Shown here piece after piece: positions 10,201-27,768 of a stretch of 33,269 nucleotides of DNA. The translations under genes and the position numbers were made by a program. Below the pieces are notes generated by a model. It was not told where the DNA came from. It did not search any database and saw nothing but the letters and a program-made list of their open reading frames with translations. The DNA is taken from assembly GCA_029858565.1 (NCBI GenBank), contig JAOUEV010000041.1, forward strand, positions 1 to 33,269. The letters run 5' to 3'. The DNA comes from Nitrospirota bacterium (GTDB lineage: Bacteria > Nitrospirota > UBA9217). How positions within the stretch are numbered: the stretch's first letter is position 1; each line of letters starts with the position of its first letter.

Positions 10201-13200
10201 CCATCGGCTTCCGCGCCGCAGGACTTTCCACCATCACCCTTGACAGCACCATCAGCGCTGACGCGGTCTTTGATCTTCCCGAGGGCCAGGACAGCGACGC
10301 ACAGGAGTACCTGGCCATCGCGCTCGGCGCAGCTGACTATCTCAGCCGCAGGGTGAGGGAGCACGCGGCCGGCCGGGTCCAGTTCAGCGGCCAGATGCTC
10401 GACACCGAGGGCCGCGACGGCATCGCAAAGCTCGGCGCGGTCAAGGCGCTCGTAGCACGCGTCGAAGCCTGGCGCCTGCTGCTGGAATCGCTTTACGCTG
10501 TTCACTCCGCACTCCGCACTCCGCACTCCGCACTTGACGCCCTCCTCGCCTCTCTCGCGGCCCAGGCCTTCAGCCCCGAGCCGGGAGCATTGGGCTATGA
10601 CGCTGGCCAGGTCTTCGGCGGCTTTGCCTATTCCGAGGACGACCTTCTGGCGCGATACTATCGCGACAGTTCGATCTTCCGTTTCCTCGCGCCCGGACAG
10701 GGATCAGCGGAACTTCTGCTGCGCGCGATCGGCTCCGAAGACCTGCGGACGTTCCTTCCTGCTGAACTGGGGTCCCTGGACCGGATCACGGGCAAGCCCC
10801 TGCTGGAGCTCGCTGAACAATGGAGCAGGACCGCAGCGTCCTTTGCCGCCCTGCGAAAACAGCACGGCTCCCTGGACCATTACTCAGCAGGCCAGGCAGC
10901 GGCCCTGCTCATCAGCATCAGGACCATGCTCAGCAGGATCGAGCGCGATATCGATTCGGGCATGGGCAGGGAGGCTGATGCAGCGGCAGCGGATGTGCTG
11001 CTCGGACTTGCCAATGACGCCCTCTCTCGCGCGGCCATTGCCGTTTCCCGCACAGCAGTGCCCCTTGCGGCGGTCTTTCCCCTGGCGCCGGCAGGCGCTC
11101 AGGTCCGGCTGGAGAGCGATTACGAGGCTTTCTGTTCCCGGCCCGCTCCGGCCCATCGTTCCGGAACGTACCTGCTTTCGCTCTTTGACCGTTCGGCCCG
11201 CTATGTTCCCGAGATGCAGCTCCACGATCCCCGGCTCCGGCAGCGCTGGGAGGAGCTTGCCTCGTGGTTCCAAAAGAACTGCGAGGAGCGGACCTTTGAG
11301 GGACGCTCCTTTGAACGGCAGGTGGAACATCTCCACAACCTGCCCCCGGACATCATCGAGGCGGTGAAGAAGAACCGCTGGCTCGCGGCCACGGTCCCTT
11401 CTTCGGAGGACGGCCTGGGTTGGCGCAAGGCGGAGTACTACATCCTGAACGCCGCAGCCGGAAGTTTCGGGGACGCGGGCATCTGCCTCCTCATCATGGC
11501 GAACACCAGCATCGGCACCACGCCGATCCTGCTCGGACTGGAAGAGGAGCTTCCCCGCGTGGCCGAGGAGCTGGAACCGCTGGTGCGCGAGCCCGGGCGG
11601 ATCGAGAAGATCCTGCGGGCCCTGGACCATATCGTCCGTTCCTTCGGGCATCCCGATCCCGGCCGCATACGAAAGGAATACGCCGCGGTCATGGCGCTCG
11701 TGGACCAGCGCATCCGGCGCACGCGGGTGGTCAAGTACCTGGCCGCGAACTTCCTCAAGGCCTTCTACGGCGCGGGTCTGGCCGGACAACGGGGCGACTT
11801 CGGCGGGTTCATGACGAACCTGGGCCGCGCGGCCGAGCTCGGCAGGTCCATCCTGCCGGACGTGCGCACCGCTTACGAGGAGATGCCCCGGCGCGAACGG
11901 TGCCACCGCTTCCATCTCAGGACCCTGGGCCACGGCGGCGTGGCAGCCTTTGCCCTGACCGAGCCGGCAGCAGGGTCCGACACCGGCGGCGTCAGGACCA
12001 CGGCCCGGCTCACCACAGCCATGCTCTCGCCCATGCCCGACGGCAGGTTCGCCTTCTCGCCCACCGGCGAGACCGGCAAGTGCGTTCGCTACCTTATTGA
12101 CGCAGACCAGGTGGTCTTCACCGCCGAAGGCATGGCCTACCGCACTCCCGGCGGCGGAACAGCGCTCATCAACCATGACAGCCTCAACAAGGTCAGGTTC
12201 TACAAGTATAACGACGGGGTCTGCGAGTTCCACGATATCGGCCAGGTGCGCAAGCTCGACATCGGCCTTGCCTACGAATACTACAGCCTCACGGGCTCGA
12301 AAATGTGGATCACCAACGGCGCCATCGCGACGCAGTTCAGCCTCTACGCGCAGACGCCCGAGGGCGTGACCGGGTTCATCGTGGACCGCTGCGCCGAAGG
12401 CCTGATCGTGGGAGCGGATGAGCGCAAGATGGGCCAGCGCGGATCGCCGACCAACGAACTGGCGCTGGACAGCGTCCGCGTTCCCCGTGAAGCAGTGATC
12501 GGCTATGAAGGCCACGGCCAGGTGAACGCCCTGGAGACCTTGAACGTGGGGCGCTGCGGTCTCGCGGTCGTTGCCGGCGCGATCGTGCGGAAAGTGCTGG
12601 CCGAGGCCGACAGGAACCTTCCCGCGTCAGCGGAGCGGGACGCGCTCCTGGGAGAGGCCGCGGCGATCCTCTTTGGAAGCGAATCCGTTGCCTACTACCT
12701 CATCGGCCTCTTTGACCGCGCCCATGAGTCGGTCAGGATCGAATCAGCGATCGCCAAGTATCTCTGCGCCGAGGACCTGCACGAGATCCTGTCGCTGGTC
12801 GAACGGGCCTACGGCCCCGCGGGCCAGACCGAGAGGTTCCTGCTTGAGAAGGCGCGGCGCGACAGCCGGATCCTGAACATCTACGAAGGCACCAATGAGG
12901 TGCAGCGCTTCCTCATCCTGAAGGACCTGATCGCCATGGCAGCGGACTGGCCCGAGCTGCCCGAGGCGCTGCATGAACGGCCTGACGATGACCATGCCCG
13001 TGTTCTCGGCCGTTGGAAGAACCGTGTGCGGGCCCATGTCCGGGACGTGAACGCGCGGTTCAAGGACACCGCCTGGATGGACGCCATGCTGCAGCCTGCG
13101 CTGTTCCTTCTGCCGGAAATGGCGGGAGAGGTGCTGCGGCTCGAATGCGTTCTTTTCCGCAGGGAGTGGCTCACTGCGCGGGTCGCGGCACTGGGAAAAA

Positions 13201-15122
13201 GCCATGTTGATCCCATGCTGGCTGCTGCGGACAGGGCAACGAGCCGCAGCCTGGCCCGGCTGGACCATCTTGATGCGACATTCCGTTCAGCCTGGGAACG
13301 GCTGTCTGTTGACCTGGTCACTTCCGCGATCACCGCAGCTGATGCAGCGATGCCCTTGGCGCCCGTCCCTGCCTCGGTTCCCGCGGTCCATGCTCCGGCA
13401 GGTAAGCTCCGTGTGCTCGTGCTGCTCAGGCCTGCTGCAGAGCTGTCGCCCCGTCCGCGCCTGCACAAGGGGGACTTCGCAGAACTTCTCTGGACCATCG
13501 ACCCCCTTGACCGCTCCGCCCTTGACCAGGCCTTTGCACTGAAGGAAGCCGCCGGGTCCCTGGTGACCGTCGATGTGCTGCTCCCCGGGACAGAACGTTC
13601 GGAAGATCTCCTGCAAGACCATGCGGGACAGGCAGATCGCCTGGTCCGCCTTGCAACGCCATACGCTGACCGCGCCATGCTTGCCCGGGCGATCAGACAC
13701 CTGGAAAAAAGCGGCGCCTACGATATCATCGCGCTGGGCGTTGAGAGCCGCGACGGGGACAGCACCTGCGCGCCCTTTCTTGCCAATGCTCTGAAGCGGC
13801 AGTATCACTCCCTTGCGGACCTGTCCGTGCTCAGCCGGACCGGCGGCGAGCTTCTCTCCCTGCCTGCGGTCGTGGCCCTTTGCCGCACAGCGGGAAAGCG
13901 TACTGCTGCAATCAATGAGCTCATCGATGCCCGCTCCACGTCAGTGGAGGTCCTGGGTCCTGCTGGTACGCCGTTGTCGATCCCCGGGTTCACCGTGCCC
14001 CGGGCTGCCGCGTCAGGCCGTCCGATCGCAGCGACCGTCAAAGCCGCAGCGGAAGTGCTTCGGGATTTTGCCGCAGCCAAGAGCTCGGAAACAGCGCCGC
14101 CCTACACCGGCGTTATTCCGCAGGGGCCGTTGCCTGCGGGGCCTTCTGCCTGGGCGATCATCGATCCCCTGTCCGGCCGCGCAGGAACCGCCGCGATGCG
14201 GGCGTGCCGCATGGCAGCCGCGCTCTTCGGACTCCCTGCTTACGTTTATATCGCTGCGCCGCAAGACCGCTGGCCCGGGCTTATCGGATCAGCACAAGCC
14301 TCGGGCGCGGACCAGGCCTTCTGTCTGGATACGGGATCAGGGACCCTGTCTGAAGAAGGAAAGGTCCAGGTCCTCGGCATGGTGAGCAGTGCCTCTGCCG
14401 GTTCCGCGATGGTCTTCAGCAGCGAGCCCTGGAGCGATGCCATGGCCTTGTGCGCGCGCGAGGACACCGTGCTCATGACCAACGCCACGGGAATGGAGCG
14501 GCTGGAACAGGGCGTCCTCGCGGTATCTTCACCCTGTTTCCAGGGCAGGCTGGTACGGACGGAACAGCTCGCGGACCGGGCGGCGTTCGTGACCCTGGGC
14601 AATGGAGCGGAACTGCCGGCGCCCCGGCCCGCGGAAGGATTCGCTGCATATGCGCTGGAAGGACCAGCGGCGCTCCACTGGACGACACCTCTTGCGCCGC
14701 CTGCCCCGCCGGCGCTTGCGACCGCTGAGGTGATCATCGACCTCGGCTACGGCGCCCGCGGCAAGGAAGGCTACGATCTGGCGCTGGAACTGAAGAAGGC
14801 GCTCGAGGACCTGGGACTGGAGCCTGTATTCGGAGCAACGCGCAAGGTCACCCAGGACCTGAAGCTTCTTCCCCTGGACGCGCAGATCGGCCAGACCGGC
14901 GTGCGCGTGGACCCGAAACTCATCATCGCACTTGGCATCTCCGGCGCGCCCCAGCATGTGGACTGGATCGGCGACCGCGCAGAGGTGCTGTGCTTCAACA
15001 AGGACCCCCAGGCGCCGCTCATGCTGCTGAACCAGAGCCGTCCGGGACCGCGGGTCCATCCCGTGGCAGGGGATCTGTTCACGACCGTGCCGGAGCTTAT
15101 TGCGCTGCTGAAAAAGAGGTAG
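7254..15122 (+). CDS. 2622-aa multidomain flavo-iron-sulfur protein: FixC/ETF-QO-like oxidoreductase + FixX-like ferredoxin + degenerate acyl-CoA dehydrogenase + acyl-CoA dehydrogenase + EtfB-like + EtfA-like
   Basis: VVIIGAGPAG, ENWSG, LAEG and GGFLYTNRDSLSLG (FixC); VCPARVY...NCIKCESC (FixX); GRVQF...AGQVFGGFAYSED...RYYRDS (ACAD C-terminal); AFALTEPAAGSD, GSKMWITNG, KMGQRGSPT and RILNIYEGTNEVQR (ACAD); LRVLVLLRP...IDPLDRSALDQA...LGVESRDGD (EtfB); AEVIIDLGYG, FGATRKV and QIGQTG...IALGISGAPQH (EtfA). Confidence 0.9.
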   Translation: MKTYRFDVVIIGAGPAGVAAAGALAGTGISVALIEAAAYAGAENWSGCVYFTESLAERDCFGPAAVQDAPYERQVVRRGTLVHNGVDEIGLALTDPAAFRHCYTVLRPLYDPYFADLARQKGAMLLTGTTVTSLVRRHGRVIGVATSRGIVHADVVFLAEGDAAHLVRSERMERVKEPHYLQGVKAVLSLAPQEIEDRFGLRPGEGAAYEILIRNASIAGRTAKLNVGGFLYTNRDSLSLGYVVPLDNLKRYYRGDHSLLFEWMRSLPHIADLAAGGQLSAYGTKIIRSGGWRERPVLVEDGLCVGGAATGLGIDIPFPNFTGPAAASGLYFARAVKALLKDGRSFDKRNLDNAYLRPLQASVYGRNAKYLSRWPSYFSRSSVLFGRTADMACGTARFLSAGNFTDTARFLRGHILSLRGQREIIFDNLRALTSLRLWKPLALTLMNPATAGSWIINQFRRIPDHDARLKIIINVGNARPDASALAWPFNSLVRRLSPALAQALSQIYGNNSIPMEQKLAAGTRILLRALKLTDLVVLPAWGLALTATSLAAALYDAFRYYVQKMPLEKLLAEPVMAYGAEQRKARDLDAIRPGTSLEAKLALNTSLVGSRPHIRTRWPRFIAHHGESAQIGLWWVCPARVYHYDAPLMGRGKVTVNWENCIKCESCWRAEPGYTLWGRFTDHGLVYRPESGAMEDLLRNLAQQRGTALPALPREEEEKLWYTGTRDSAAMAPVLSAMAAFRDALARVPASIDRTRFRWPLLLGERVCEKLRSLEQVFIEEGRRDAGAELKAEGAALSLRLAKGELFPALYIVERLEYRLGAWFTSSPSRISIRPEKEAEDIAQPAKELAVLFPDRMVKEWEERPLTPEETASLHRLLATLQHPVMTTVRALAAISPALALIASRQARALRVLAAAKRKPFSGASVLSAADLAITPRENSISLSGTIELAPLTGVTALILVAGTKAYHLPLSHAGVIVTPTPAIGFRAAGLSTITLDSTISADAVFDLPEGQDSDAQEYLAIALGAADYLSRRVREHAAGRVQFSGQMLDTEGRDGIAKLGAVKALVARVEAWRLLLESLYAVHSALRTPHSALDALLASLAAQAFSPEPGALGYDAGQVFGGFAYSEDDLLARYYRDSSIFRFLAPGQGSAELLLRAIGSEDLRTFLPAELGSLDRITGKPLLELAEQWSRTAASFAALRKQHGSLDHYSAGQAAALLISIRTMLSRIERDIDSGMGREADAAAADVLLGLANDALSRAAIAVSRTAVPLAAVFPLAPAGAQVRLESDYEAFCSRPAPAHRSGTYLLSLFDRSARYVPEMQLHDPRLRQRWEELASWFQKNCEERTFEGRSFERQVEHLHNLPPDIIEAVKKNRWLAATVPSSEDGLGWRKAEYYILNAAAGSFGDAGICLLIMANTSIGTTPILLGLEEELPRVAEELEPLVREPGRIEKILRALDHIVRSFGHPDPGRIRKEYAAVMALVDQRIRRTRVVKYLAANFLKAFYGAGLAGQRGDFGGFMTNLGRAAELGRSILPDVRTAYEEMPRRERCHRFHLRTLGHGGVAAFALTEPAAGSDTGGVRTTARLTTAMLSPMPDGRFAFSPTGETGKCVRYLIDADQVVFTAEGMAYRTPGGGTALINHDSLNKVRFYKYNDGVCEFHDIGQVRKLDIGLAYEYYSLTGSKMWITNGAIATQFSLYAQTPEGVTGFIVDRCAEGLIVGADERKMGQRGSPTNELALDSVRVPREAVIGYEGHGQVNALETLNVGRCGLAVVAGAIVRKVLAEADRNLPASAERDALLGEAAAILFGSESVAYYLIGLFDRAHESVRIESAIAKYLCAEDLHEILSLVERAYGPAGQTERFLLEKARRDSRILNIYEGTNEVQRFLILKDLIAMAADWPELPEALHERPDDDHARVLGRWKNRVRAHVRDVNARFKDTAWMDAMLQPALFLLPEMAGEVLRLECVLFRREWLTARVAALGKSHVDPMLAAADRATSRSLARLDHLDATFRSAWERLSVDLVTSAITAADAAMPLAPVPASVPAVHAPAGKLRVLVLLRPAAELSPRPRLHKGDFAELLWTIDPLDRSALDQAFALKEAAGSLVTVDVLLPGTERSEDLLQDHAGQADRLVRLATPYADRAMLARAIRHLEKSGAYDIIALGVESRDGDSTCAPFLANALKRQYHSLADLSVLSRTGGELLSLPAVVALCRTAGKRTAAINELIDARSTSVEVLGPAGTPLSIPGFTVPRAAASGRPIAATVKAAAEVLRDFAAAKSSETAPPYTGVIPQGPLPAGPSAWAIIDPLSGRAGTAAMRACRMAAALFGLPAYVYIAAPQDRWPGLIGSAQASGADQAFCLDTGSGTLSEEGKVQVLGMVSSASAGSAMVFSSEPWSDAMALCAREDTVLMTNATGMERLEQGVLAVSSPCFQGRLVRTEQLADRAAFVTLGNGAELPAPRPAEGFAAYALEGPAALHWTTPLAPPAPPALATAEVIIDLGYGARGKEGYDLALELKKALEDLGLEPVFGATRKVTQDLKLLPLDAQIGQTGVRVDPKLIIALGISGAPQHVDWIGDRAEVLCFNKDPQAPLMLLNQSRPGPRVHPVAGDLFTTVPELIALLKKR
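10503..10534 (+). repeat. CACTCCG heptamer tandem repeat inside the CDS
   Basis: Four full copies plus CACT, encoding HSALRTPHSAL. Confidence 0.9.
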
Positions 15123-17053: not shown

Positions 17054-17692
17054 CTATTGCAGGCGGTAGACCACCGGCATGATCAATTCGGCGCGGACCG
17101 GCGGTCTCGGGACAGAGGTCAGCCCCCTGATCGTATCAACGGCGCCCCGGTCCAGAACAGCATGCCCCGAGCTTTCCCGGACCCGCACGTCCTCGATGCG
17201 GCCGTCCTCGCAGATGATGAACGAGACCGTCACCCTGCCGGCCCACCCCATCTTCCGCGCCAGGAGGGGGTATTTCAGGCCCTTCATGATCCGGTCGCGG
17301 ATGGATGCAAAGTGCGCTTCGAGATATCGGCTCCGCGCGCCTTCAGCGCTGTCGCCGCCGCCCGCTGCTGCGGCGACCTGATCGCGGGCGGGAAGGCCGG
17401 CTGCCGGGACCGCATCCGCTGATGCAGGCGCAGCGTTCTCGCTTTCCGCCGTCGGCGCGACCTTGCGCGGTTCGGTTGTCTGCTGGTCGATTCTCGGCGC
17501 TGCCGGCGCAGGTTTCCGGACAGCCGCGGCTGTTGCGCGTATTCCCGGCGCCTGTGCCGCCGTGCCGACGCTGAAATCCAGGACAATCCTGCGTTCCCGC
17601 GGCACGACGGAGAAAGAACCCGCAAGAACGACGCCTGCCAGGAGCGCATGAAGCGCCACGGAAACCTGGAGCCCCCGGGCCTGGGCGGTCAT
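17054..17692 (-). CDS. tonB: Energy transducer TonB
   Basis: N-terminal anchor SVALH (SxxxH), Pro/Ala-rich linker, and C-terminal YPLLARKMGWAGRVTVSF...SSGHAVLDRGA. Confidence 0.93.
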   Translation of the reverse strand: MTAQARGLQVSVALHALLAGVVLAGSFSVVPRERRIVLDFSVGTAAQAPGIRATAAAVRKPAPAAPRIDQQTTEPRKVAPTAESENAAPASADAVPAAGLPARDQVAAAAGGGDSAEGARSRYLEAHFASIRDRIMKGLKYPLLARKMGWAGRVTVSFIICEDGRIEDVRVRESSGHAVLDRGAVDTIRGLTSVPRPPVRAELIMPVVYRLQ

Positions 17693-18069
17693 CGTTTCAC
17701 CTCTGTCTGAAGGCTCACTTTCTTGAAACCGAAACTTTTCACCGTGTCCAGCACATCCACGAACTGCTGCAGTTTCACCTCCTGGTCAGCCCGGATCAGG
17801 ATGGGACAGGACCGGTCGAGGGAGCAGACGGAATCGCGGAGCTTCGGAAGCGTCATCGGCGTGCTGTTCAAGAAGATGCTCCCGGTCCGGTCGATGACAA
17901 TGGTCTGCGACCGCACCGCCGTCTCCGGTGTCCTGGACGCTTCAGGCAATTCCACCGGGATCACGCCGGTGGCTATGAAGGTAGACGTGGTCAGCACGAT
18001 CGTGAGCAGCACCAGCATCACGTCCACCAGCGGGATCACGTTCAGATAATCAAATTCCTTCTCGTCCAT
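17689..18069 (-). CDS. exbD: Biopolymer transport protein ExbD
   Basis: [22 protein letters not shown] and IRADQEV. Confidence 0.95.
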
Positions 18070-18484
18070 GGCTGATCTCCCACTGCATCATCAGGACTTT
18101 CGCGCGCCGGAGCAGCGTGTTGTACAGAACGACCGACGGGATCGCGACCAGGAGCCCGACGGCCGTTGCCTTGAGCGCCAGCGCAAGTCCGGACATGATG
18201 CTGCCCGTGTCCATGAACCCCTGCTTGCCCATGGCCGAAAAGGTCAGCATGATGCCCAGCACCGTTCCCAGGAGCCCCACATAGGGCGCGTTGCTCCCGA
18301 TCGTGGCGATGACGTGCAGCTTGTTCGTCAGCTCCAGCTCCAGCGCCTTCTTGTCCGTGTACTTCCTGATATCAATGGCCCGGTAAACGAGCCAGCGCTC
18401 CACTGCCACGGCAACCGCGGCGATGCTCATGGCGACCAATATGCCGATGATCCCGTAATCCAATGCACCCTGCAACCACTCCAT
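18050..18484 (-). CDS. exbB: Biopolymer transport protein ExbB (short form)
   Basis: [21 protein letters not shown] and [20 protein letters not shown] lies 6 nt before the ATG at 18484. Confidence 0.95.
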
Positions 18485-18494
18485 ACTCAACCTC

Positions 18495-19103
18495 CTACAG
18501 AAGAATCCTGGTCCCCATCAGAACGAGGACTCCTGCGGCGCCCCACCGGATCAGCGGTACATATCGATGAGCTTCCTCCCGGACGGTCTTCCCGACGAGC
18601 GCCAGCGCCCCGCCGCCGATCAGAAGGGGCGAAAGCGTGATCCCCAGACCGAATGCCAGCCCCAGCCCGGCGCCTTTGAGCAGGGAGCCGGCGCCGGCCG
18701 CTGCCGCGATGAGCGCGGCGAGCGGCACGCAGGGCACGAGGCTGGATGAGAACCCGGCTGCAAAGAGCGACAGCCCGGCTGCTGTTCGTTCCCTGCTGTC
18801 GCAGCGGTCCCTGGCGATGAAGGGAAGCGCAATTCCCGTCAGTACCAGCACGAAACCATGGAGCCGGCGTCCGGCTCCGCCGTCGGCGGGAACGAGCCCC
18901 TGCCCTGCCAATGCCGCTGCAGCGCCCAGGACCGCATAGGCGGCGGTTTTGCCTGCGGCGAAAACGGCAGACGACCGTGCGCCGTGCCGAAACCCCCTGC
19001 CGAAGGAAAGCAGATAGGGCGCGAGCGTGGGGAGACAGGCAAAGCTGCAGGTGGTGAATCCGAATCCCATGCCCAGGACCAGTGCCGACGTCATCTCAGG
19101 CAT
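18495..19103 (-). CDS. DsbD_2 / TauE-SafE-like six-helix membrane protein
   Basis: About six transmembrane segments with Cys motifs TCSFACLP and LVPCVPL. Confidence 0.8.
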
Positions 19104-19908
19104 CGACCTGCTCCCTTGTTTCGATCCAGGCGGCCCGGGCCAGGGTGGCCGCGCCGATGGCGGTGGTGAACTGCGGCAGCGCCGGGACCGTCACCTTTCG
19201 CATGAGTTCATCCTCCAGGGCCGCGACCATGCCGCTGTTCAGCGCCGGTCCGCCGTCGAAGAACACCCCGTCCTCGATCCCGATCCGCCTGGCCAGCCGC
19301 ACGATCCTGCGGGCGATGGAGTAATGCACGCCCGCAACGATCTCCTCCCTGCCGTGGCCGTTCGCCAGAAGGCTGATGATCTCCGACTCGGCGAAGACCG
19401 TGCAGGTGCTGGTTACGGGCAGCGGCGCGCCGGAACAGCGACGGTGCAGGTCGCCAAGCTCGTCCACCTCCGTGCCGAGGTTCCGGGCTGTCATCTCGAG
19501 GAACCGGCCGGTCCCTGCCGCGCACTTGTCGTTCATCACGAAGTTCCTTACCTGGCCGTCCGCGTCCAGGAGCAGGACCTTGGAATCCTGACCGCCGATA
19601 TTGATGATCGTCCGGACCGCATCCGATCCGGCGATGGCCCGTGCGCCTGCTGCGTTGGCCGTGATCTCGCTCACGGTCTCGTCGGCATCGTGAAAAAGTT
19701 TCCTGCCGTATCCCGTGGACAGGACGTATGCCACGTCGGAGCGATCGATGCCTTCCTCCTCCAGCAGGAGCCCGAGCGCCGCAAGCGTGTTCTTCCTGAA
19801 ATGGCTGCCTGTGGGGGCGGCCGTCCGGCCTGCCGGCATCCCTTCATCGTCCATCAGCGCGATCTTGATCGCCGTGGACCCCATGTCGATCCCTGCGAAA
19901 TATCTCAT
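19096..19908 (-). CDS. HgdC/BadG-family ATP-dependent [4Fe-4S] activator (DCCP-R-like)
   Basis: GIDMGST, STGYGR, IGGQDSK, MNDKCAAGTGRFLE and STCTVFAESE. Confidence 0.93.
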   Translation of the reverse strand: MRYFAGIDMGSTAIKIALMDDEGMPAGRTAAPTGSHFRKNTLAALGLLLEEEGIDRSDVAYVLSTGYGRKLFHDADETVSEITANAAGARAIAGSDAVRTIINIGGQDSKVLLLDADGQVRNFVMNDKCAAGTGRFLEMTARNLGTEVDELGDLHRRCSGAPLPVTSTCTVFAESEIISLLANGHGREEIVAGVHYSIARRIVRLARRIGIEDGVFFDGGPALNSGMVAALEDELMRKVTVPALPQFTTAIGAATLARAAWIETREQVDA

Positions 19909-21179
19909 GCCCGTTTCCTCGCCTTTCCTCTCAGCGATTCGATGAACGCCTCGACCCGCGTGGACAACTGGCCGTGGTCGTCGGGACCGTAGTCCGTTTC
20001 CACGAGGAGCAGGGGAATGTTCGCTGCCGCCAGGGCCCTGCCCACGGTCCGCTGCTCCTGATCATAGGGCATGCACCCGGCGATGGTCTGGTAGACCACG
20101 CCATCGGCGGAGAAGGTCTGCGCCAGGTCCAGCAGCCTGCGGATCCGGTCCTGCGACGAACTGAACACCGGGCAGGTGCAGGGTTTGAGCGCGCGGTCGG
20201 CCACGGCAGGCACCATGTCGTAGAGCGCCTGTTCGTCGTAGGCAGCAAGATCGTACAGGAGCCGCGACGACGAACAGACCTCGTCCGCCACGATCACGCC
20301 GCCTGCCTGTTCGATCAGGAGCGGAAGCTTCAGGTTCGGGAACACCGGCGGCGATCCCGTGAAGAGGATGCGTGCGGCATGCTTTCCCGCGACAAAAACA
20401 CTCCGATCCTGCCGGTCTTCCAGCTCGTCGGCGAGCGCATTCACCGCGCCGGTCCAGCGGTCCAGGTCGTCGAAGAAATAGGCGTTGGTCACGAGCATGG
20501 CGTCCGTGCCCCGGATCAGCGCTTGCCGGGATTGCTGGAGCCCGTGCAGCCGCCGGTAGGCAGCGCGGGCAAGGCCGGTCGCCCGGATCGCATCGGCAAG
20601 CCGCTGTTTCGTGATCCGCACACCCGTGGTCCGCTCGAGCGCTGCGCCGAAGTTCTTCACCGAACGGTGCCAGTACTCCCGCGCTTCCTCGGAATCCCGT
20701 GAGGCCGGCATTTCAAGGTTATATACCCGGTACCCGAACTCCTCCAGGAGCTCTCCGGCCTTCTTTTTCTGATCGCAGGTGGTCGGGTTCACCACGAGAT
20801 CGAGCGTTCCGGAAAACGCCGTGCTGCGCAGGGAGAGCATGCCGAGCGTCGCTTTCATGAGCGAACAGGACTTGGCGGGCAGGAACTCCGCGCCGACCTG
20901 GTCGAAGGCATGCGCGCCGCTGCAGAGCCGCACCGGCACCGCGCCTGCCGCCCGGACCAGCTCTTCCGGGACCTGCACGCAGAGCGTGCCGACGCGCTTC
21001 CTGCCGTCCTCATTCGCTCCACCGCTGCCGTAGGCGATGCGGAACTGTTCGTAGAAATACTGCATGGCCGCGGGATGGACCGGGAAGTCCTCCTCCATCT
21101 GCCGGAGCGTCTCCTTCGCTTCCATGGCGAGATGGACCCCCGTGGTCTTCCTCAGCCGCTCCAGCCGCTCCTTATCCAT
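19905..21179 (-). CDS. HgdB/FldC-family protein with a double-cubane cluster protein (DCCP)-type Cys pattern
   Basis: GTLCVQVPEEL, RLCSG, LPAKSCSLMKA, TTCDQKKK, DEVCSSSR, PCTCP, GCMPY, ETDY and TRVEAFIE. Start placed at 21179, 7 nt after GGAGG and overlapping the upstream stop. Confidence 0.88.
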   Translation of the reverse strand: MDKERLERLRKTTGVHLAMEAKETLRQMEEDFPVHPAAMQYFYEQFRIAYGSGGANEDGRKRVGTLCVQVPEELVRAAGAVPVRLCSGAHAFDQVGAEFLPAKSCSLMKATLGMLSLRSTAFSGTLDLVVNPTTCDQKKKAGELLEEFGYRVYNLEMPASRDSEEAREYWHRSVKNFGAALERTTGVRITKQRLADAIRATGLARAAYRRLHGLQQSRQALIRGTDAMLVTNAYFFDDLDRWTGAVNALADELEDRQDRSVFVAGKHAARILFTGSPPVFPNLKLPLLIEQAGGVIVADEVCSSSRLLYDLAAYDEQALYDMVPAVADRALKPCTCPVFSSSQDRIRRLLDLAQTFSADGVVYQTIAGCMPYDQEQRTVGRALAAANIPLLLVETDYGPDDHGQLSTRVEAFIESLRGKARKRA

Positions 21180-22158
21180 GGACATTCCTCCGCCTCGCTC
21201 TGTTCGCAAATCCTTCGACGGTTGCTTCGTACACCGGGATCCCGAGGAAGCTCGCGGTGAGGCATTTCTCCTCGGGACAGGCGGCAACGCACTTGAAGCA
21301 CATCATGCAGTCGTCCTGCACGATGTTTTTGCTCGTCACGTCGTCGGCGATCTCCCGGATGCCCACGTCGCAGACCCGGGAGCAGTTGCCGCAGCGGGTG
21401 CACTTCGCCCCGATTTTCGTGAGCCTGAGCAGGCCTGCCTTCGAGAAGGCATACTGCAGCGCGCTCATGGGGCAGAAGAGGCAGAAGAAGCGCCTCTTCA
21501 CAAAAGAACCGGCGAAAAAGATGCCGGTAATCGCCATCCCGAGCCCGGTCAGCACCGTCATGGTCTTGGAACTGAAATCGATGGCCAGCTGGCTGATATC
21601 TCCGGTGAAGATCGGCAGCACGGTCCGGCCGGGACAGATCATGCAGTACGCCGTGGCGAGATCGTGCGGCAGTTTGGGCGCGCCCACGAGGGAATTGCTG
21701 ATCCCGAGAGGCAAGAGCACCAGGAGCGCAAGAAGCAAATACTTGATCCCCTTGAGCCTCCGAAAGGTCCTCTCGGAGTAGAGGCTGAACCGGATGCCGA
21801 GAGCCGTCCGCACCTTGGAGACCCAGTCCTGCACGGTCCCGAGCGGACAAGCGTAGCCGCACCAGGCTTTATTGAACAGGATAAAGAACAGGATGAACGT
21901 GGCCAGCCCCACGGCAAAACCGACCCCCCGTCCGCCGAGAAACTGGGCCCAGGGCATGTTCACCTGGTGCTGGAGCGGATAGAGATAGCACGCGCCTGCG
22001 CGGGATTCGGCGAACACGCAGGAGAAGGCCGGCAGACTGTTGCCCAAGTCCACGGCAAGAAAACCGCCGTAGATCAGCAGTCCGAACGCCGCAACCTGGA
22101 ACCAGAAACGAAAGCGGTTGATGTCCCCGTTATTCAGAAAACGCTTAACCGCGTTCAT
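21172..22158 (-). CDS. Membrane polyferredoxin (NapH/MauN-like 4Fe-4S-binding protein)
   Basis: Several transmembrane helices, WCGYACPLG, YCMICPG and FFCLFCPM, plus two ferredoxin motifs CTRCGNCSRVC and CMMCFKCVAACP. Confidence 0.9.
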   Translation of the reverse strand: MNAVKRFLNNGDINRFRFWFQVAAFGLLIYGGFLAVDLGNSLPAFSCVFAESRAGACYLYPLQHQVNMPWAQFLGGRGVGFAVGLATFILFFILFNKAWCGYACPLGTVQDWVSKVRTALGIRFSLYSERTFRRLKGIKYLLLALLVLLPLGISNSLVGAPKLPHDLATAYCMICPGRTVLPIFTGDISQLAIDFSSKTMTVLTGLGMAITGIFFAGSFVKRRFFCLFCPMSALQYAFSKAGLLRLTKIGAKCTRCGNCSRVCDVGIREIADDVTSKNIVQDDCMMCFKCVAACPEEKCLTASFLGIPVYEATVEGFANRARRRNVHG

Positions 22159-23167
22159 CGAAGGTCACCTCCGGGCAGGGTTTCTTCCGTCGCTCCCGGT
22201 GCGTGTAAATCCCCGCAGCCGCGGCAGTGAAGAAGAATACGCCGATGCCAAGCCCGTAAAGATAGGAGGTATAGTCCCTTCGCTGCGGAATATACCGCCA
22301 GGGAAGCGTGGCAACGAGCCGCGTGCCGGAGTAGGCCGATCCCCGGTATACGCCCTGCTCCGGCGTTTCGAGCCTCGCGGTCACCAGCACCGTACCCCGC
22401 TTCCGCGCGTCGAAGAGCGACCACTTTTCCGGATAGTAGTCACCGATGAGCTGCACCGCCGCCTTGCCGTTCTCGTCTGCCTCGATGGTCTTGGTCCAGC
22501 CGCTGCCCGTGGTGAAGGACACCGTGGCGCCGGGAGCAGGCGCGCCGTTCCGCAGGACCCGCACGGACAGAACGTCGCCGGACATGGTCTTGCTGTGAAA
22601 GTTCCGGTCCCAGAGATCCGGCGCCACGATCTCGAGCGGGATCGAACGATCATGCTTCGGTCGGATCCGCTCTTCGTCGAACTTGTACTTGTGTCCCCAG
22701 CCGCAACTGTGATTGATCATGTACGCCTTTGCCGCGCGGACGGTCAGGACTCCGCCGCCTACGGACCGGTCGATCACGTACAGGTTGAACACGCCGTCCC
22801 GGGACCCGTCAAGGGGTTTGGTGTCTACAGCAAAGGACCAGCCGTCCCTGCCGTGGCTGAGCGCTCCCGCTGCGCGGCTGCCGTCGGGCCGCATGATCGC
22901 CGCCTCGGCGTCGTCATGAAGATCATGCAGGTTCAGATACCAGGTCCGCTCCGCCGTTGCGCGGTGCTCGGCATGGCCCTGCTCCCTGCGCCGGCCGTCG
23001 TTCCCGCCGTGCGCCGCGCCATGCCCTGCGGGCGGCGTTTCGGACAGCACCAGCATATCGCCGGTCGTCGGGCGGCCTGCTGCTGCCGAAAACGGGAACA
23101 TCCCGAAGGTCAGCATGACTGCAAAGAGCATCAACAATGAATCCATCTGCTTCCCCCTGAGCCCCAT
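22145..23167 (-). CDS. Exported His-rich, C-terminally membrane-anchored protein with a DUF4198-like beta domain
   Basis: Signal peptide, then GHGAAHGG...GHAEH, NHSCGWGH, GDVLSVRVLRNGAPAPGATV...ADENGKA, and a C-terminal transmembrane helix with a basic tail. The start is uncertain (23146-23224); 23167 has a GAGG RBS. Confidence 0.75.
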   Translation of the reverse strand: MGLRGKQMDSLLMLFAVMLTFGMFPFSAAAGRPTTGDMLVLSETPPAGHGAAHGGNDGRRREQGHAEHRATAERTWYLNLHDLHDDAEAAIMRPDGSRAAGALSHGRDGWSFAVDTKPLDGSRDGVFNLYVIDRSVGGGVLTVRAAKAYMINHSCGWGHKYKFDEERIRPKHDRSIPLEIVAPDLWDRNFHSKTMSGDVLSVRVLRNGAPAPGATVSFTTGSGWTKTIEADENGKAAVQLIGDYYPEKWSLFDARKRGTVLVTARLETPEQGVYRGSAYSGTRLVATLPWRYIPQRRDYTSYLYGLGIGVFFFTAAAAGIYTHRERRKKPCPEVTFDERG

Positions 23168-23186
23168 CGGATCCTCTTCGCTGCGC

Positions 23187-23238
23187 ATCCCGCCGCCCTT
23201 TGCCCGCCCCTCCGTCACAGACAAAGGGACGGCGGGAT
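23187..23238. promoter_or_regulatory. Intergenic GC-rich hairpin directly after the receptor gene
   Basis: ATCCCGCCGCCCTTTG (23187-23202) pairs with CAAAGGGACGGCGGGAT (23222-23238) with one bulge. There is no U-tract. Confidence 0.55.
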
Positions 23239-23243
23239 GAGCA

Positions 23244-25394
23244 TTACCATTTGTATGCCGCGCCCGCGTACCAGGTCTGCGGATCTCCGGGGAAGAGGCT
23301 GAAGTTCCCCCGGCTCGCGCTTGCGTAGGACGCGTATTTCCGGTCCGTGAGGTTTATGACATGCAGCCAGAACTGCCAGCTGCTCACGTCATACGTCGTC
23401 CGGAGATTGAACAGGCCGGGACGTTCGTAGGTGTACTGGTTGGCGTCGTCGTAATACTGCCTCCCGACCTGGTCCAGTTCGCCCTCGATCTCCAGCCCTT
23501 TGACCGGCAGGACCGCGAGCCGCGCGTTCGCATGCTGCCGCGGGGACCGGGGCATCCAGTTCCCGCTGTAATTATAGGGAGTCGCCGCGTTAAGGTCCTT
23601 GTAGTCCTCGTACTTGTTCTCCGAGTACGTATAGGCAAGGGTCAAACGGACCCTGTCCACGGGCGCGACCGCGATCATGGTCTCCACGCCCTTGTGGGAC
23701 GTCTCGCCCACGTTCAGGTACTGCGATGCCTGCGTCACCGGATCGATGGTCTGCGAGATGATCTTGTCCTTGATCGTCATGGTATAGATCGCAACGTCGG
23801 TCTTCAGCCGGTTGTTCAGGAAAGCCGTGCGCACGCCGACTTCGTAGTTATCCGCCTTTTCCGCTTCCAGCCCCAGGTTCGCTCCCCGGCCGGAGAAAAG
23901 CTGGCTCGAGGTGGGCGCCACAAATCCCTGCGAATATCCGCCATAGACATTCACCGACGGGGAGAGATCCACGGTCACGCCGGTCTTGGTCGTGGTCTTT
24001 GAGAAGTCCTTGGTGCCGCCCTGGCCCAGCCCGAGGTTGTCCTGCACGTCGTACGAGACCGCATCGCGCCGGCCGCCCACGCTGAGCCGGACCTTCTCGG
24101 CCGGAGAGATCTCGAACAGCGCATAGGGCGAGGCCACATCGGTGTCCACGTCATAGGAAGTGCTGAGGCCGGCATAGGAATAGGACGTATATTTCTTCGT
24201 CACCGCGTTCCGCGTGACGTTGATGTTGTAGGTATCGACGGTCGAGGATCCCTTTTGCATATCCACGCCCGCCACGATCCTCGACCGCAGCGGCGCGAAG
24301 TCCTGCTTGAACTGCGCCTGCACATCGGCGTCGGTCCCCTGGATCCTGTTCATGATGCCCGTATACCGCCGGGTCGCGCTGTTGTACCGGAACATATAGT
24401 GGGGGATCACTTCATGGTTGAGGTCCCGCGCCAGCACGGCAAGTTTCAGTTCGCCGCCGGTCCCGACGGTCCGCGTATAGCTCAGCGAGGGAGTGGTTTT
24501 CCTGATCAGCACATAGGTGAAGGTGTTGTAGTCCTGCTGCCAATTCTTGTCGAAATCCGCCTTGTCAATGGCACCCATGAGCTCGACGTCGGAGAACAGG
24601 TAATCCACCCGGAAATCGAGCACCGACGCCTCATCGGGAGCATAGACCAGCTTGAGCGCTGCGGACTGCTTCTTGTTGGCGCTGTGCTCGCGCCACCCCT
24701 TGGAATCCTGGCCGTTCAGGTTCACGTAATAGCCGAGCGAGCCTGCCATGCCGCTTGTCGTGACGCCTCCCCGCTGGCGGTCGTACTCGCCCTTTTCTAC
24801 CCAGAGCCGGGTCTTCGGCGTTGCCGACGGCCGCTTGGTGATGATATTGATCACCCCGCCGATGGCGTTGTTGCCGTAGAGCGCCGAGGCCGGTCCCTTG
24901 ATCACTTCGATCCGCTCGATATCATCGGCGTTGATCTCCTTGAGCAGGCCGCCGGCGCTCTCGCCGAATCCTGCCGCGGGAAGACCGTCGATCAACAGCA
25001 GGGTGTAGGGACTGGCGAAACTGGTCGGAATGCGGATGGAGGTCAGTTCCTCCTCGCTGTTGAAGTTATGGGAATAGATGCCCGGAAGCCGGTTCAGCAT
25101 TTCCGCGGCATTGCGATATTTGACGGTTTCCACTTCCTGTTCGGTAACCACGTTGATCGTTGACGATGAATCCTTCAATTTTTCCCTTGTTCTCGTTGCC
25201 GTCACGACCACCTCTTCCAGTTCAGCGGTGTTCTGCTGCGCTGCGGAAGCCGACGACTCTTGGGCGTTGACCGGCACGGCGGCTGCATGCTGCTCCGTCG
25301 AGGCAGTTCCTTCTTCGGCGCTTACCATACCTCCTGCTGAAAAAAACGTTGCTGCCGCTACCACAAAAACGATTGCACTCGAATTCCTGAACAT
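23244..25394 (-). CDS. TonB-dependent outer-membrane receptor
   Basis: Signal peptide from the ATG at 25394 (GGAGG RBS), TonB box EEVVVTATR, plug motif IERIEVIKGPASALYGNNAIGGVINIITK, NLTDRKY, and a terminal aromatic residue (AAYKW). Confidence 0.95.
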   Translation of the reverse strand: MFRNSSAIVFVVAAATFFSAGGMVSAEEGTASTEQHAAAVPVNAQESSASAAQQNTAELEEVVVTATRTREKLKDSSSTINVVTEQEVETVKYRNAAEMLNRLPGIYSHNFNSEEELTSIRIPTSFASPYTLLLIDGLPAAGFGESAGGLLKEINADDIERIEVIKGPASALYGNNAIGGVINIITKRPSATPKTRLWVEKGEYDRQRGGVTTSGMAGSLGYYVNLNGQDSKGWREHSANKKQSAALKLVYAPDEASVLDFRVDYLFSDVELMGAIDKADFDKNWQQDYNTFTYVLIRKTTPSLSYTRTVGTGGELKLAVLARDLNHEVIPHYMFRYNSATRRYTGIMNRIQGTDADVQAQFKQDFAPLRSRIVAGVDMQKGSSTVDTYNINVTRNAVTKKYTSYSYAGLSTSYDVDTDVASPYALFEISPAEKVRLSVGGRRDAVSYDVQDNLGLGQGGTKDFSKTTTKTGVTVDLSPSVNVYGGYSQGFVAPTSSQLFSGRGANLGLEAEKADNYEVGVRTAFLNNRLKTDVAIYTMTIKDKIISQTIDPVTQASQYLNVGETSHKGVETMIAVAPVDRVRLTLAYTYSENKYEDYKDLNAATPYNYSGNWMPRSPRQHANARLAVLPVKGLEIEGELDQVGRQYYDDANQYTYERPGLFNLRTTYDVSSWQFWLHVINLTDRKYASYASASRGNFSLFPGDPQTWYAGAAYKW

Positions 25395-25622
25395 GCGAAA
25401 TCCTCCCCGGTCGGACAGGGATCCTGTCTGCCTGCCCGGCCATCCCGAGCGACAAACAGGCTGTCCGCCTCTCCACGTTCGTGGCGTCGTCATTGAATTG
25501 GAAAATGGGTGATAGTGAGGTGTCCGGTGACGGTGCACAGGCGCGTCACGGCATACAGGGATGCCTGACCGCGACAGATGTCGCTGCCTGTTCACCAAAC
25601 AATACAGAAGCCGGACAGGAGG

Positions 25623-25901
25623 TTAACTTCTCGGGGGACGGTATTGCGTTTTACTGAAGAGATTATCGGAAAGAATCGTGTCCTGCAGATCGATCGGACC
25701 CGCAACCGGAGTTATGACAAGCGTGCCGATGGGCTCGGTGAGCGACGGCATGCTGTTCGAGGGCTGGAGCTGGTTCCCCTGGTGACAGACGTCAAGTTGG
25801 ACGAGCGCGCACTCGCTCTGACCGCAGGCCAGGACAATGACGCCCGTGGGAAGCACAACCGCGACAATCACGGCGAGAAGAATGATGCTCGTCACACGCA
25901 T
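25623..25901 (-). CDS. Small exported Cys/His protein ending in RPPRS; candidate DUF2946/CruR/CutF-like upstream regulatory ORF
   Basis: N-terminal hydrophobic helix, C-x4-C-x7-CH, Pro-rich linker and C-terminal YRPPRS*. It is the first gene upstream of the TonB-dependent receptor. Confidence 0.7.
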   Translation of the reverse strand: MRVTSIILLAVIVAVVLPTGVIVLACGQSECALVQLDVCHQGNQLQPSNSMPSLTEPIGTLVITPVAGPIDLQDTILSDNLFSKTQYRPPRS

Positions 25902-25903
25902 CA

Positions 25904-25936
25904 GTATTAATACAGCGTTTGCTTTCTTCCTGTCAA
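25904..25936 (-). promoter_or_regulatory. Possible sigma70 promoter giving a near-leaderless transcript of the upstream ORF
   Basis: Minus strand TTGACA, 18 bp, TATTAAT, a few nt before the ATG. No Shine-Dalgarno sequence. The palindrome GTATTAATAC (25904-25913) overlaps the -10 region. Confidence 0.4.
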
Positions 25937-25986
25937 CCTCAAATTCAAATTAGCGATAGCAGCTGATAGCTGCGCGGAAATGCTCA

Positions 25987-27768
<1,782 letters not shown>

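Follow-up and report, generated by a model that had tools for sequence, protein, structure and literature searches.

Gene content and organization of the locus

The contig analyzed here in its entirety, JAOUEV010000041.1 of a Nitrospirota bacterium (33,269 nucleotides, hereafter the window; the genome, G000, comprises 3.9 Mb in 144 contigs), carries ten consecutive minus-strand open reading frames (ORFs) at 17054–25901, nine of which are placed by Pfam (Table 1). Nine tightly packed genes, which make up 17054–25394, encode a TonB-dependent receptor, a DUF4198-fold protein, a membrane polyferredoxin, a double-cubane cluster protein (DCCP) of the HGD-D family with its ATPase, a DsbD_2-family protein, and ExbB, ExbD and TonB. 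While the component families and reduction-coupled TonB uptake are known, it is new to find an ATP-driven double-cubane reductase, along with its ATPase, placed within such a system. New as well are a sister module without DCCP, operators of the RegA/SpdR type in proteobacterial relatives, the presence of this operator ahead of copper-chaperone, cydAB, COX2 and nosZ genes in Rhodocyclaceae, and SCO1/SenC or PepSY_TM genes embedded in a few related loci. Full-text searching of the literature, with the supplementary neighborhood tables of the DUF4198 and CrtA papers lying outside it, found no work linking a DCCP or HGD-type protein to TonB uptake, and among the DUF4198 papers covered, titles and abstracts describe nothing like this operon.

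Read from tonB upstream, the gene junctions measure -4, -20, +4, -8, -4, -14, -14, +19 and +24 nucleotides (nt). These spacings show that the overlapping starts and stops described in an earlier note on this DNA are real, and they fit a translationally coupled operon. The DCCP gene most likely starts at the ATG at 21185, overlapping the polyferredoxin stop by 14 nt, and the DUF4198-like gene at the ATG at 23146. For the receptor, the most likely start is the ATG at 25394, which lies behind GGGGAGGA and opens a signal-peptide-like N-terminus (MFRNSS...), rather than the TTG at 25598. As the earlier note had also stated, the operon holds no second dehydratase (HGD-D) subunit, coenzyme A (CoA)-transferase or ABC (ATP-binding cassette) transporter, nor does it hold a CoA ligase; a separate HGD-D/activase cluster lies in the same genome on contig C132.

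Table 1. Genes of the operon, with loci from other genomes that are discussed in the text (plain numbers are window positions; L, locus)
Feature	Position or locus	Strand	Basis
tonB, TonB_C	17054–17692	minus	Pfam
exbD, ExbD	17689–18069	minus	Pfam
exbB, MotA_ExbB	18050–18490	minus	Pfam
DsbD_2-family protein, six transmembrane helices, four conserved Cys	18495–19103	minus	Pfam
BcrAD_BadFG archerase-type ATPase (DCCP-R-like, putative electron-injecting activase)	19096–19908	minus	Pfam
HGD-D gene, predicted DCCP, long form, 426 amino acids	19905–21185 (longest ORF to 21287)	minus	Pfam
Membrane polyferredoxin, Fer4_5 + 4Fe-4S dicluster	21172–22158	minus	Pfam
DUF4198-fold protein	22145–23146 (longest ORF to 23224)	minus	Weak Pfam match
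TonB-dependent receptor, Plug + TonB_dep_Rec_b-barrel, 716 amino acids	23244–25394 (longest ORF to 25598)	minus	Pfam
Small lineage-specific ORF, 92 amino acids	25623–25901	minus	No Pfam or NCBIfam family
Sister module without DCCP or ATPase	L036:16020-20865		
Sister module without DCCP or ATPase	L074:928-7457	minus	
Copy with DCCP, without ATPase and DsbD_2	L040:2-5113		
Copy with DCCP, without ATPase and DsbD_2	L067		
CobN-like locus	L045:3-4055		
CobN-like locus	L062:12835-17580		
CobN-like locus	L073:6120-11017		
CobN-like locus	L078:1680-7581		
CobN-like locus	L068:4762-8820		
TGCGRCAAWTTGYCGCA upstream of the operon, first part	L008, L009, L011, L015, L019, L034, L035, L037, L039, L047, L049		
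TGCGRCAAWTTGYCGCA upstream of the operon, second part	L056, L063, L065, L069, L070, L072, L075, L076, L077, L081, L082		

A double-cubane cluster protein and its ATPase

Among structures in the PDB, the HGD-D protein matches the DCCP entries 7YYL (E = 6.9e-75) and 6ENO (1.2e-74), compared with 4e-22 for BzdN, 1e-18 for MbdN and 1.8e-15 for a 2-hydroxyacyl-CoA dehydratase beta subunit of the HadC type. It narrowly passes NF040772, the NCBIfam equivalog model for DCCP (351.4 bits against a cutoff of 350), whereas the HadC model gives 89 bits (cutoff 700) and the BzdN model 87 bits (cutoff 454). The cysteine pattern C69-X18-C88-X18-C107-X29-C137-X166-C304-X33-C338-X32-C371 aligns Cys for Cys with the chain of 6ENO/7YYL. 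This is the seven-Cys motif, six cluster ligands and one nearby Cys, published for DCCPs (PMC7317905); its first spacer, printed there as X19, is counted as X18 in the window protein and the prototype alike. The seven motif cysteines and C336 occur without exception in all 82 related sequences. The single HgdB-like chain can be regarded as a solidly assigned DCCP, as the earlier note had proposed, and not as a subunit of a dehydratase or benzoyl-CoA reductase; it does not group with the true dehydratases. By analogy with its family, it is predicted to hold an [8Fe-9S] cluster and to perform ATP-dependent reduction.

The ATPase, whose gene and that of the DCCP overlap stop to start by 4 nt, scores 195 bits for BcrAD_BadFG and 249 bits for TIGR00241. 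Its cluster cysteines, C129 and C169, are invariant in 56 sequences, and their equivalents in DCCP-R, C115 and C152, are reported as cluster ligands (PMC9351452). The prototype pair of C. hydrogenoformans, DCCP/DCCP-R (CHY_0487/0488; 6ENO, 7YYL), resembles the window pair in its single HGD-D-fold chain of about 420 amino acids with the seven-Cys motif (and an [8Fe-9S] cluster in the prototype), in the adjacent archerase with two cluster cysteines, and in being of the long form with an N-terminal extension. In contrast to the prototype, the window pair is embedded between membrane and TonB-system genes, and its ATPase is closer to the activator HadI (5e-59) than to DCCP-R (7yyl_E, 2e-42). The channels of long-form DCCPs are described as too narrow to admit a CoA ester, and as suited to small molecules (PMC7317905). 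In the accounts of their discoverers, no physiological function is established for DCCPs (PMC9351452, PMC7317905).

The DUF4198-fold protein

Membership of the next component in DUF4198 rests on predicted fold rather than on sequence. Its score for the Pfam family PF10670 is 25.3 bits, below the cutoff of 34, so that the earlier description of a His-rich DUF4198-like protein stands for the modeled fold and not for the Pfam assignment. With an AlphaFold2 model (pLDDT 87, pTM 0.81) as the Foldseek query, DUF4198 proteins occupy the top nine places among the PDB matches (E = 1e-9 to 4e-8; target-normalised TM-scores of 0.50–0.63), and the matched structures include Neisseria Zcp with Zn, Cu or Co and Ideonella IsDUF4198 with Ni. 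In profile and sequence searches against the PDB, alignment was limited to a short transthyretin-like stretch, and mapping the metal ligands of Zcp by sequence failed, as that stretch alone aligns.

The protein begins with a signal peptide and a His-rich N-terminal stretch, contains an HSCGWGH motif, and ends in a transmembrane (TM) helix followed by a short cytoplasmic tail (...PCPEVTFDERG). As the His-rich stretch and a KHSCxxGH motif recur in the family consensus, the N-terminal histidines and HSCxxGH are candidate metal ligands. DUF4198 proteins are described as periplasmic metal binders that often adjoin TonB receptors, and the solved ones bind Ni with nanomolar and Zn with sub-micromolar affinity (PMC12663993, PMC12537917). 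Zcp and IsDUF4198 share with the window protein the two-domain beta-sandwich fold, the periplasmic location, a frequent position beside TonB receptors and, on the candidate ligands, probably His-based metal binding. They differ from it in that the window protein lies under the Pfam cutoff, adds a TM anchor and a cytoplasmic tail, and has a Cys in its likely ligand motif; Zcp, in addition, is monocistronic and Zur-regulated.

Among the related loci described below, the DUF4198-like proteins of full modules continue from the TM helix into a conserved cytoplasmic tail with the consensus YRRRRxxP(F/Y)xEVRFDE, detected by a regular expression in 59 of 71 and by eye in six further proteins. In the variants described below, none of the four copies without an ATPase gene has the tail, and this co-variation suggests that the tail may address the ATPase. 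A complex prediction for the ATPase dimer with the TM-plus-tail segment, run without controls, scored 0.00 against a mark of 0.32 and speaks neither for nor against binding.

The polyferredoxin and the DsbD_2-family protein

The polyferredoxin contains Fer4_5 (53.9 bits) and Fer4_10 domains, and its Atlas neighbors include 'YccM'. NapH and CcoG were considered as its identity and rejected: it scores 62 bits for the NapH subfamily and 58 bits for the NapH equivalog, far below the cutoffs of 213 and 234, and the CcoG architecture is incomplete. The protein shares a superfamily with both and belongs to neither family. As judged from charge and hydrophobicity, it would have four TM helices and expose its two CxxxCP/CxxCP motifs and its 2x[4Fe-4S] domain to the cytoplasm. 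Four cysteines in predicted periplasmic loops (C47, C57, C172, C175) show conservation of at least 95% across 78 sequences, and the cytoplasmic CxxxCP motifs and the dicluster domain are conserved too.

CcoG (FixG/RdxB), the cupric reductase of cbb3 oxidase assembly, is likewise membrane-bound and contains the Cys motifs of Fer4_5 and two [4Fe-4S] clusters; its physiological electron donor is given as unknown (PMC7558416). The window polyferredoxin, unlike CcoG, has no FixG_C domain and a weak Fer4_18 match (E = 0.003), and a separate, true ccoG with all three domains is found on another contig of the genome, within a cbb3 oxidase operon (ccoN-ccoO/P-ccoG-ccoH). The Ig-like domain of CcoG could be supplied in trans in the window operon by the DUF4198-fold protein.

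The Pfam DsbD_2 family includes UreH-like Ni permeases. The window protein passes it with 56.8 bits (cutoff 24.9); for DsbD_TM it scores 25.6 bits, short of the required 27.1, and there is no NCBIfam match. Cysteines conserved across 70 sequences form a GxxxC19xxxC23xP motif in TM1, C101 in a cytoplasmic loop and PC125xP in TM4. This pattern would fit either a thiol relay or a path for a soft metal, and the same two possibilities are suggested by the cysteines conserved in the DsbD_2 protein and the periplasmic loops of the polyferredoxin taken together.

The receptor and its ExbB, ExbD and TonB

All the families of a TonB system are present (Plug, TonB_dep_Rec_b-barrel, MotA_ExbB, ExbD and TonB_C), and ExbB passes TIGR02805 (exbB2) with 162.8 bits against a cutoff of 135. 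Hidden Markov models built from the window proteins find two receptors and two exbB genes in the whole genome, so the operon represents half of its TonB-dependent uptake capacity. Similarity proved uninformative about the substrate of the receptor: the best NCBIfam match is the generic TonB-siderophore subfamily, at 215 bits below the cutoff of 223.5, and the nearest full-length relatives of solved structure are PqqU and YncD (E = 1e-24).

Among known TonB-dependent copper receptors, NosA and OprC supply periplasmic cuproenzymes such as N2O reductase across the outer membrane (PMC7558416), a role like the one considered below for the window receptor. OprC binds copper through a CxxxM-HxM motif, whereas the mature window receptor has no Cys and no motif of this type. 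OprC is also absent from the 49 PDB sequence matches of the receptor, in which one unnamed receptor entry appears as a partial match only.

Conservation, distribution and variants

A species-level scan, with one genome per species, returned 179 stretches with DCCP relatives, of which the best 80 (50–76% identity) were kept, and the models built from the window proteins were run over all their ORFs; the following counts refer to loci with enough flanking sequence. The polyferredoxin and ATPase genes each adjoin the DCCP gene in 76 of 77 loci, the DUF4198-like gene is adjacent in all 71, and DsbD_2 is present in 66 of 70. A receptor gene is adjacent on the same strand in 49 of 64 loci and found anywhere in the locus in 57. 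The gene order duf4198-polyFd-dccp-dccpR-dsbD2 holds for at least 94% (about 95% or more) of the loci, which come from at least four phyla. The recurrence of the same gene order in 80 loci from other genomes places the arrangement far beyond chance, and the linkage to TonB genes that the earlier note had seen in a single genome proves to be conserved. Some exb or tonB gene lies in 23 of the 44 loci with at least 7 kb on both sides. No further conserved neighbor was found, the largest non-core cluster reaching seven of 80 loci, and the 147 immediate neighbor ORFs of 62 loci fall into 144 Pfam families.

This regularity bears on the possibility, here rated as highly improbable, that the substrate of the DCCP pair is a small metabolite with no relation to the cargo of the receptor and that the clustering reflects nothing more than shared low-oxygen regulation. 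DCCPs do occur elsewhere without transport genes, both in the C132 cluster of the window genome and as described in PMC7317905, and the receptor is missing from seven of 64 loci. However, the DCCP and ATPase genes stand amid genes for membrane proteins with overlapping stops and starts, the five-gene order persists across phyla while the outside neighbors vary, and the cytoplasmic tail of the DUF4198-like protein co-varies with the ATPase gene.

The carriers include Nitrospirae/Thermodesulfovibrionales, Thermodesulfobacteriota of the Desulfobulbales type, Rhodocyclaceae, Gallionellaceae, Sulfuricella, Thiobacillus, Sedimenticolaceae, Thiodiazotropha, Thiohalomonadaceae, Methylococcaceae, Methylocystaceae and one metagenome-assembled genome (MAG) of Bacteroidota; both Beta- and Gammaproteobacteria are represented. 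Many are bacteria of sediment and groundwater, and Azonexus caeni, Azovibrio restrictus, Desulfurivibrio dismutans and Parasulfuritortus cantonensis are culturable. Within these lineages the module is sparse. Of 301 genomes sampled from the window's phylum, 5 (G000 among them) match its DUF4198-like profile, as do 6 of 201 genomes of the family of A. caeni and none of three other genomes of the window's genus. Such patchy occurrence is the pattern of a mobile accessory module, and the operon is best read as a self-contained, horizontally mobile module used by diderms of hypoxic or sulfidic habitats.

Two kinds of variant occur (Table 1). A sister module consisting of receptor, DUF4198-like protein, polyferredoxin and DsbD_2 lacks both DCCP and ATPase; both examples share their loci with a full module, from which the L036 sister is separated by a RegA-like regulator gene, and the L074 sister also carries exbBD-tonB. 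These modules imply that the transport and polyferredoxin part can work without DCCP. The other variant retains DCCP and lacks both the ATPase and DsbD_2.

Regulation of the operon in relatives

For the leader of about 500 nt, no riboswitch was found, as Rfam gave no match at gathering scores window-wide and none with E of 5 or less at 25300–26050. Fur (19-mer and 15-mer), Zur, NikR and ModE boxes, represented by consensus strings, scored no better in 68 upstream regions than in random regions of the same loci, and a scan of the operon for sigma-70 promoters and terminators gave counts at the level of shuffled sequence. Comparison of k-mers between the 68 upstream regions and random regions revealed the palindrome TGCGRCAAWTTGYCGCA, present in one to three copies in 22 of the 68, from Desulfobulbales and Betaproteobacteria (Table 1). 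It matches the site CTGCGAC-N5-GTCGCAG, derived from electrophoretic mobility shift assays for SpdR, the Caulobacter member of the RegA/ActR/PrrA family (PMC4830024). The operator pattern has 12–24 matches per strand in five carrier genomes, against 0–8 for a reversed control, and RegA-like regulators (receiver and Fis-type helix-turn-helix, about 183 amino acids) are encoded in seven loci and RegB-like kinases in three. In the best reading of these sequences, the proteobacterial and Desulfobulbales operons would be under redox control of the RegA/PrrA/SpdR type, jointly with genes for cuproenzyme maturation, and not under a classical metalloregulator.

In four Rhodocyclaceae genomes (G001, G002, G004 and G005), operator sites outside the operon adjoin genes for copper handling and respiration. 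SCO1/SenC genes lie beside such sites in G001, G002 and G005; in G001 the string is ORF-SCO1/SenC-PCuAC, divergent from a TlpA-like redoxin gene, and G005 is similar. The sites also adjoin two NosL genes (G001), FtsX-type permeases and cydAB or cydA (both in G001 and G002), COX2 and nosZ (G004), and a RegB-like kinase gene and a tonB-exbB pair (G005).

Copper as the leading candidate cargo and the alternatives

Copper-related genes also occur within or beside the operon itself. In L081 dsbD2 is separated from tonB-exbBD by a SCO1/SenC gene, the operon's gene strings in L075 and L060 include a PepSY_TM gene and a further receptor, and TlpA-like redoxins adjoin the operon in four loci. The SCO1/SenC and PepSY_TM arrangements mirror the CrtA/CrpH operons of Bordetella and Pseudomonas: in over 75% of loci the gene for the CrtA copper-chelate receptor has a PepSY_TM gene (CrpH) after it, and PCuAC, ScoI and ExbBD-TonB are sometimes encoded there too (PMC12914433, PMC13038864). 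As described in those reports, the CrtA-CrpH systems likewise pair a receptor without conserved Cys or Met with a membrane redox protein and an optional ExbBD-TonB of their own, and are associated with copper chaperones and heme-copper oxidases (PMC12914433, PMC13038864). They differ from the window operon, whose redox partner is a NapH/CcoG-like polyferredoxin with the DCCP pair rather than a heme PepSY_TM protein, which adds the DUF4198 and DsbD_2 proteins, and whose relatives use a RegA-type operator instead of the CruR upstream ORF.

Taken together, the operon is read here as a system of TonB-dependent soft-metal acquisition with an ATP-driven reductive step and copper as the leading cargo, at roughly even odds (about 0.5). 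The metal import and ATP-driven reduction proposed in the earlier note gain from the metal-binder fold of the DUF4198 protein and from the copper regulon and neighbors in relatives, and continue to be a matter of interpretation.

Several observations weigh against this reading. The copper link rests on relatives and not on the window genome, in which TGCGAC-N5-GTCGCA has no site at up to two mismatches genome-wide and none upstream of the operon. A copper regulon was also looked for in Desulfurivibrio (G003) and not found; the other sites there, mostly with two mismatches, adjoin unrelated genes (MoaA-like, prephenate dehydratase, MazG, AP2, PIN, CobU and others). RegA-type control covers a general respiration regulon, so that co-regulation with cuproenzymes may reflect low oxygen. 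Copper-related families form a small minority of the 147 immediate neighbors (Redoxin 3, DUF2946 3, SCO1-SenC 2, PepSY_TM 2). COX1-family genes are present in all six operon-bearing genomes tested (G000 and five others), but the enrichment is weak and kin are not independent; with COX1 in 161 of 301 genomes of the sampled phylum, its presence in carriers is only compatible with copper. The receptor is not OprC- or NosA-like, and the receptor-less loci, from Sedimenticolaceae, Thiohalomonadaceae and Thiodiazotropha, have unrelated genes upstream (GGDEF, GST, hemerythrin, CLC channel). The case is further weakened by direct attachment of exbB after the core in 10 of 60 loci only. DUF4198 proteins bind Zn and Ni as well, and copper reduction needs no low-potential ATP-driven reductase. 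Finally, CobN/Mg-chelatase-like genes of about 1360 amino acids adjoin the operon in five loci, four from methanotrophs and one from Methylocystaceae, with a short ExbB-like gene in the four methanotroph loci, an arrangement that is zinc-regulated in Pseudomonas.

The CobN-like and ExbB-like genes, the Ni and Zn affinities of the solved DUF4198 proteins (PMC12537917, PMC12663993) with the fold match to them, and the His-rich N-terminus of the window protein would all suit the same architecture serving another metal, namely Ni or Co (for hydrogenase, carbon monoxide dehydrogenase or corrinoids), Zn or Fe. The reduction would then fall on the chelator or the metal, such as Co or a low-potential ferric chelate, and a very low-potential reductase is chemically sensible for ferric catecholates or Co(II)/Co(I). 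This is nevertheless rather unlikely, given that Fur, Zur and NikR boxes do not exceed the control in the 68 upstream regions, that no cobalamin or NiCo riboswitch was found, and that no Ni, Co, Zn or Fe homeostasis family is among the 25 most frequent neighbor families. Moreover, the conserved ligands of the DsbD_2 protein are Cys, not the His/Asp typical of Ni/Co permeases, and the co-regulated genes of Rhodocyclaceae are copper chaperones.

A very unlikely cargo is selenium or another chalcogen, in which case Se(0) or a selenotrisulfide would be reduced to selenide for SelD, with the Cys relay carrying the chalcogen and DCCP providing the very low potential. The redox potential of the Se(0)/HSe- couple lies far on the negative side. 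In the window genome selD occurs twice, at G000:C3:2376-3290 and G000:C14:90529-91446, each copy with one in-frame TGA, indicating that the organism uses selenocysteine and may have two selenocysteine-containing copies of SelD. Many carriers are sulfur-cycling bacteria, and the narrow channel of the long-form DCCP suits a small inorganic substrate (PMC7317905). According to the preprint of Haft and Gwadz, 955 of 970 high-scoring DCCPs occur in SelD-containing assemblies (10.1101/2022.07.06.499078). Against selenium stand the general commonness of SelD in anaerobes, the cation-binding fold of the periplasmic component, the copper-related nature of the operator-linked genes and the lack of any linked selD, selA or yedE/F-like gene in the 80 loci.

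The cysteines of the membrane proteins, together with the genes that accompany the operon, also allow a reversed reading, in which nothing enters the cytoplasm and reducing power is exported from DCCP through the polyferredoxin and a DsbD_2 thiol relay to the periplasm. This is judged quite unlikely, whether its target would be cuproprotein-assembly or DUF4198 Cys ligands kept reduced, or a receptor-delivered chelate reduced as by PepSY_TM proteins. The DsbD_2 protein has a TM1/TM4 Cys/Pro pattern that would fit the relays of CcdA/DsbD, the polyferredoxin has its conserved periplasmic Cys pairs, TlpA-like redoxins or SCO1/SenC stand beside the operon in several loci, and a PepSY_TM-plus-receptor unit is joined to the operon in L075 and L060; Zcp, for its part, is reported to buffer periplasmic metal and to be dispensable for import (PMC12663993). 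However, neither thiol/disulfide exchange nor Cu(II) reduction needs an ATP-driven low-potential source, donation from DCCP to the polyferredoxin is hypothetical, and the sister module (L036, L074) keeps the polyferredoxin and DsbD_2 without DCCP.

Proposed mechanism and significance

On the reading of soft-metal acquisition with copper as the leading cargo, the receptor, powered by its own ExbB-ExbD-TonB, would bring a metal species into the periplasm, as expected from the families involved. The membrane-anchored DUF4198-fold protein could then capture the metal through its putative His/Cys ligands. At the inner membrane, the polyferredoxin and the Cys-lined DsbD_2 protein may pass on electrons, metal or both; the analogies here are CcoG, as a cupric reductase, and the PepSY_TM reductases that accompany receptors for metal chelates. 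In the cytoplasm, the archerase ATPase is predicted to use the energy of ATP to load the [8Fe-9S] cluster of DCCP with low-potential electrons, a mechanism demonstrated for the family elsewhere. The reduced DCCP might act on a small imported species or ligand, or on the polyferredoxin, and its reduction could render metal release or capture irreversible where ordinary reductants would be insufficient.

In part of its detail this scheme is limited by the variants. The DCCP-less sister modules make reduction by DCCP an add-on rather than the heart of the transport module, and, combined with the long form of the enzyme, they render reduction of a bulky chelate or tetrapyrrole at the double cubane unlikely. 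The remodeling of such a chelate or tetrapyrrole by DCCP, as envisaged in the earlier note, is also disfavored by the narrow channels described in PMC7317905. It is more likely that DCCP handles small species or feeds low-potential electrons to the membrane stage.

The operon gives the question of DCCP function a concrete, testable context, and DCCPs are widespread nitrogenase-like ATP-driven reductases. It may be speculated, although the odds are against it, that the first physiological role of the double-cubane enzyme is found here, as an ATP-energized electron source for TonB-dependent acquisition of copper or another soft metal, with the tail-bearing transmembrane DUF4198 protein coupling periplasmic capture to the cytoplasmic reductase. 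If so, microaerophiles, denitrifiers, methanotrophs and sulfur bacteria would use it to load respiratory cuproenzymes in sulfidic, metal-starved sediments. The operon also bears on how diderms acquire copper and soft metals under hypoxic, sulfidic conditions, as few bacterial copper-uptake systems are known according to PMC13038864 and PMC7558416. Should the copper link be true, the module would matter for microaerobic respiration, for methane oxidation and for the reduction of N2O in sediments and groundwater.

The upstream ORF, flanking genes and other features of the window

All the genes that the earlier note had named for the operon are present, nine of them with Pfam support; the ORF upstream of the receptor, however, is lineage-specific and probably falls outside the conserved unit. 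In this ORF of 92 amino acids, a hydrophobic segment at the N-terminus is accompanied by an LAC lipobox-like site and a DVCH motif. The ORF was considered as a conserved component and rejected, since it belongs to no family and its look-alikes among the 80 loci are two weak ones confined to L005 (phmmer E = 0.002 and 0.008), at L005:5243-5536 and L005:3986-4390, the first of which also has the DVCH motif. Small exported Cys/His proteins ahead of the receptor occur only in the window and in the nearest relative of its operon, which is that of a Nitrospirae MAG. A TTGACA-N18-TATTAA sequence at 25936–25907, noticed by eye and not called by the promoter scan, ends about 6 nt before the ATG of the ORF, which would make the ORF nearly leaderless.

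The flanks are unrelated to the operon. The next gene upstream encodes an aspartyl-tRNA synthetase, as read from its translation, and downstream lie an ORF of 337 amino acids without assignment and a hemerythrin gene. Elsewhere in the window, a single plus-strand ORF of 2622 amino acids (7254–15122) combines an FAD/NAD oxidoreductase, the middle and C-terminal domains of an acyl-CoA dehydrogenase, and domains resembling electron-transfer flavoprotein (ETF)-beta and the FAD-binding part of ETF-alpha; a complete, possibly bifurcating acyl-CoA dehydrogenase/ETF system in a single polypeptide would be unusual. In another plus-strand ORF, at 31172–33094, a YkuD L,D-transpeptidase domain and a complete Mur ligase are fused.

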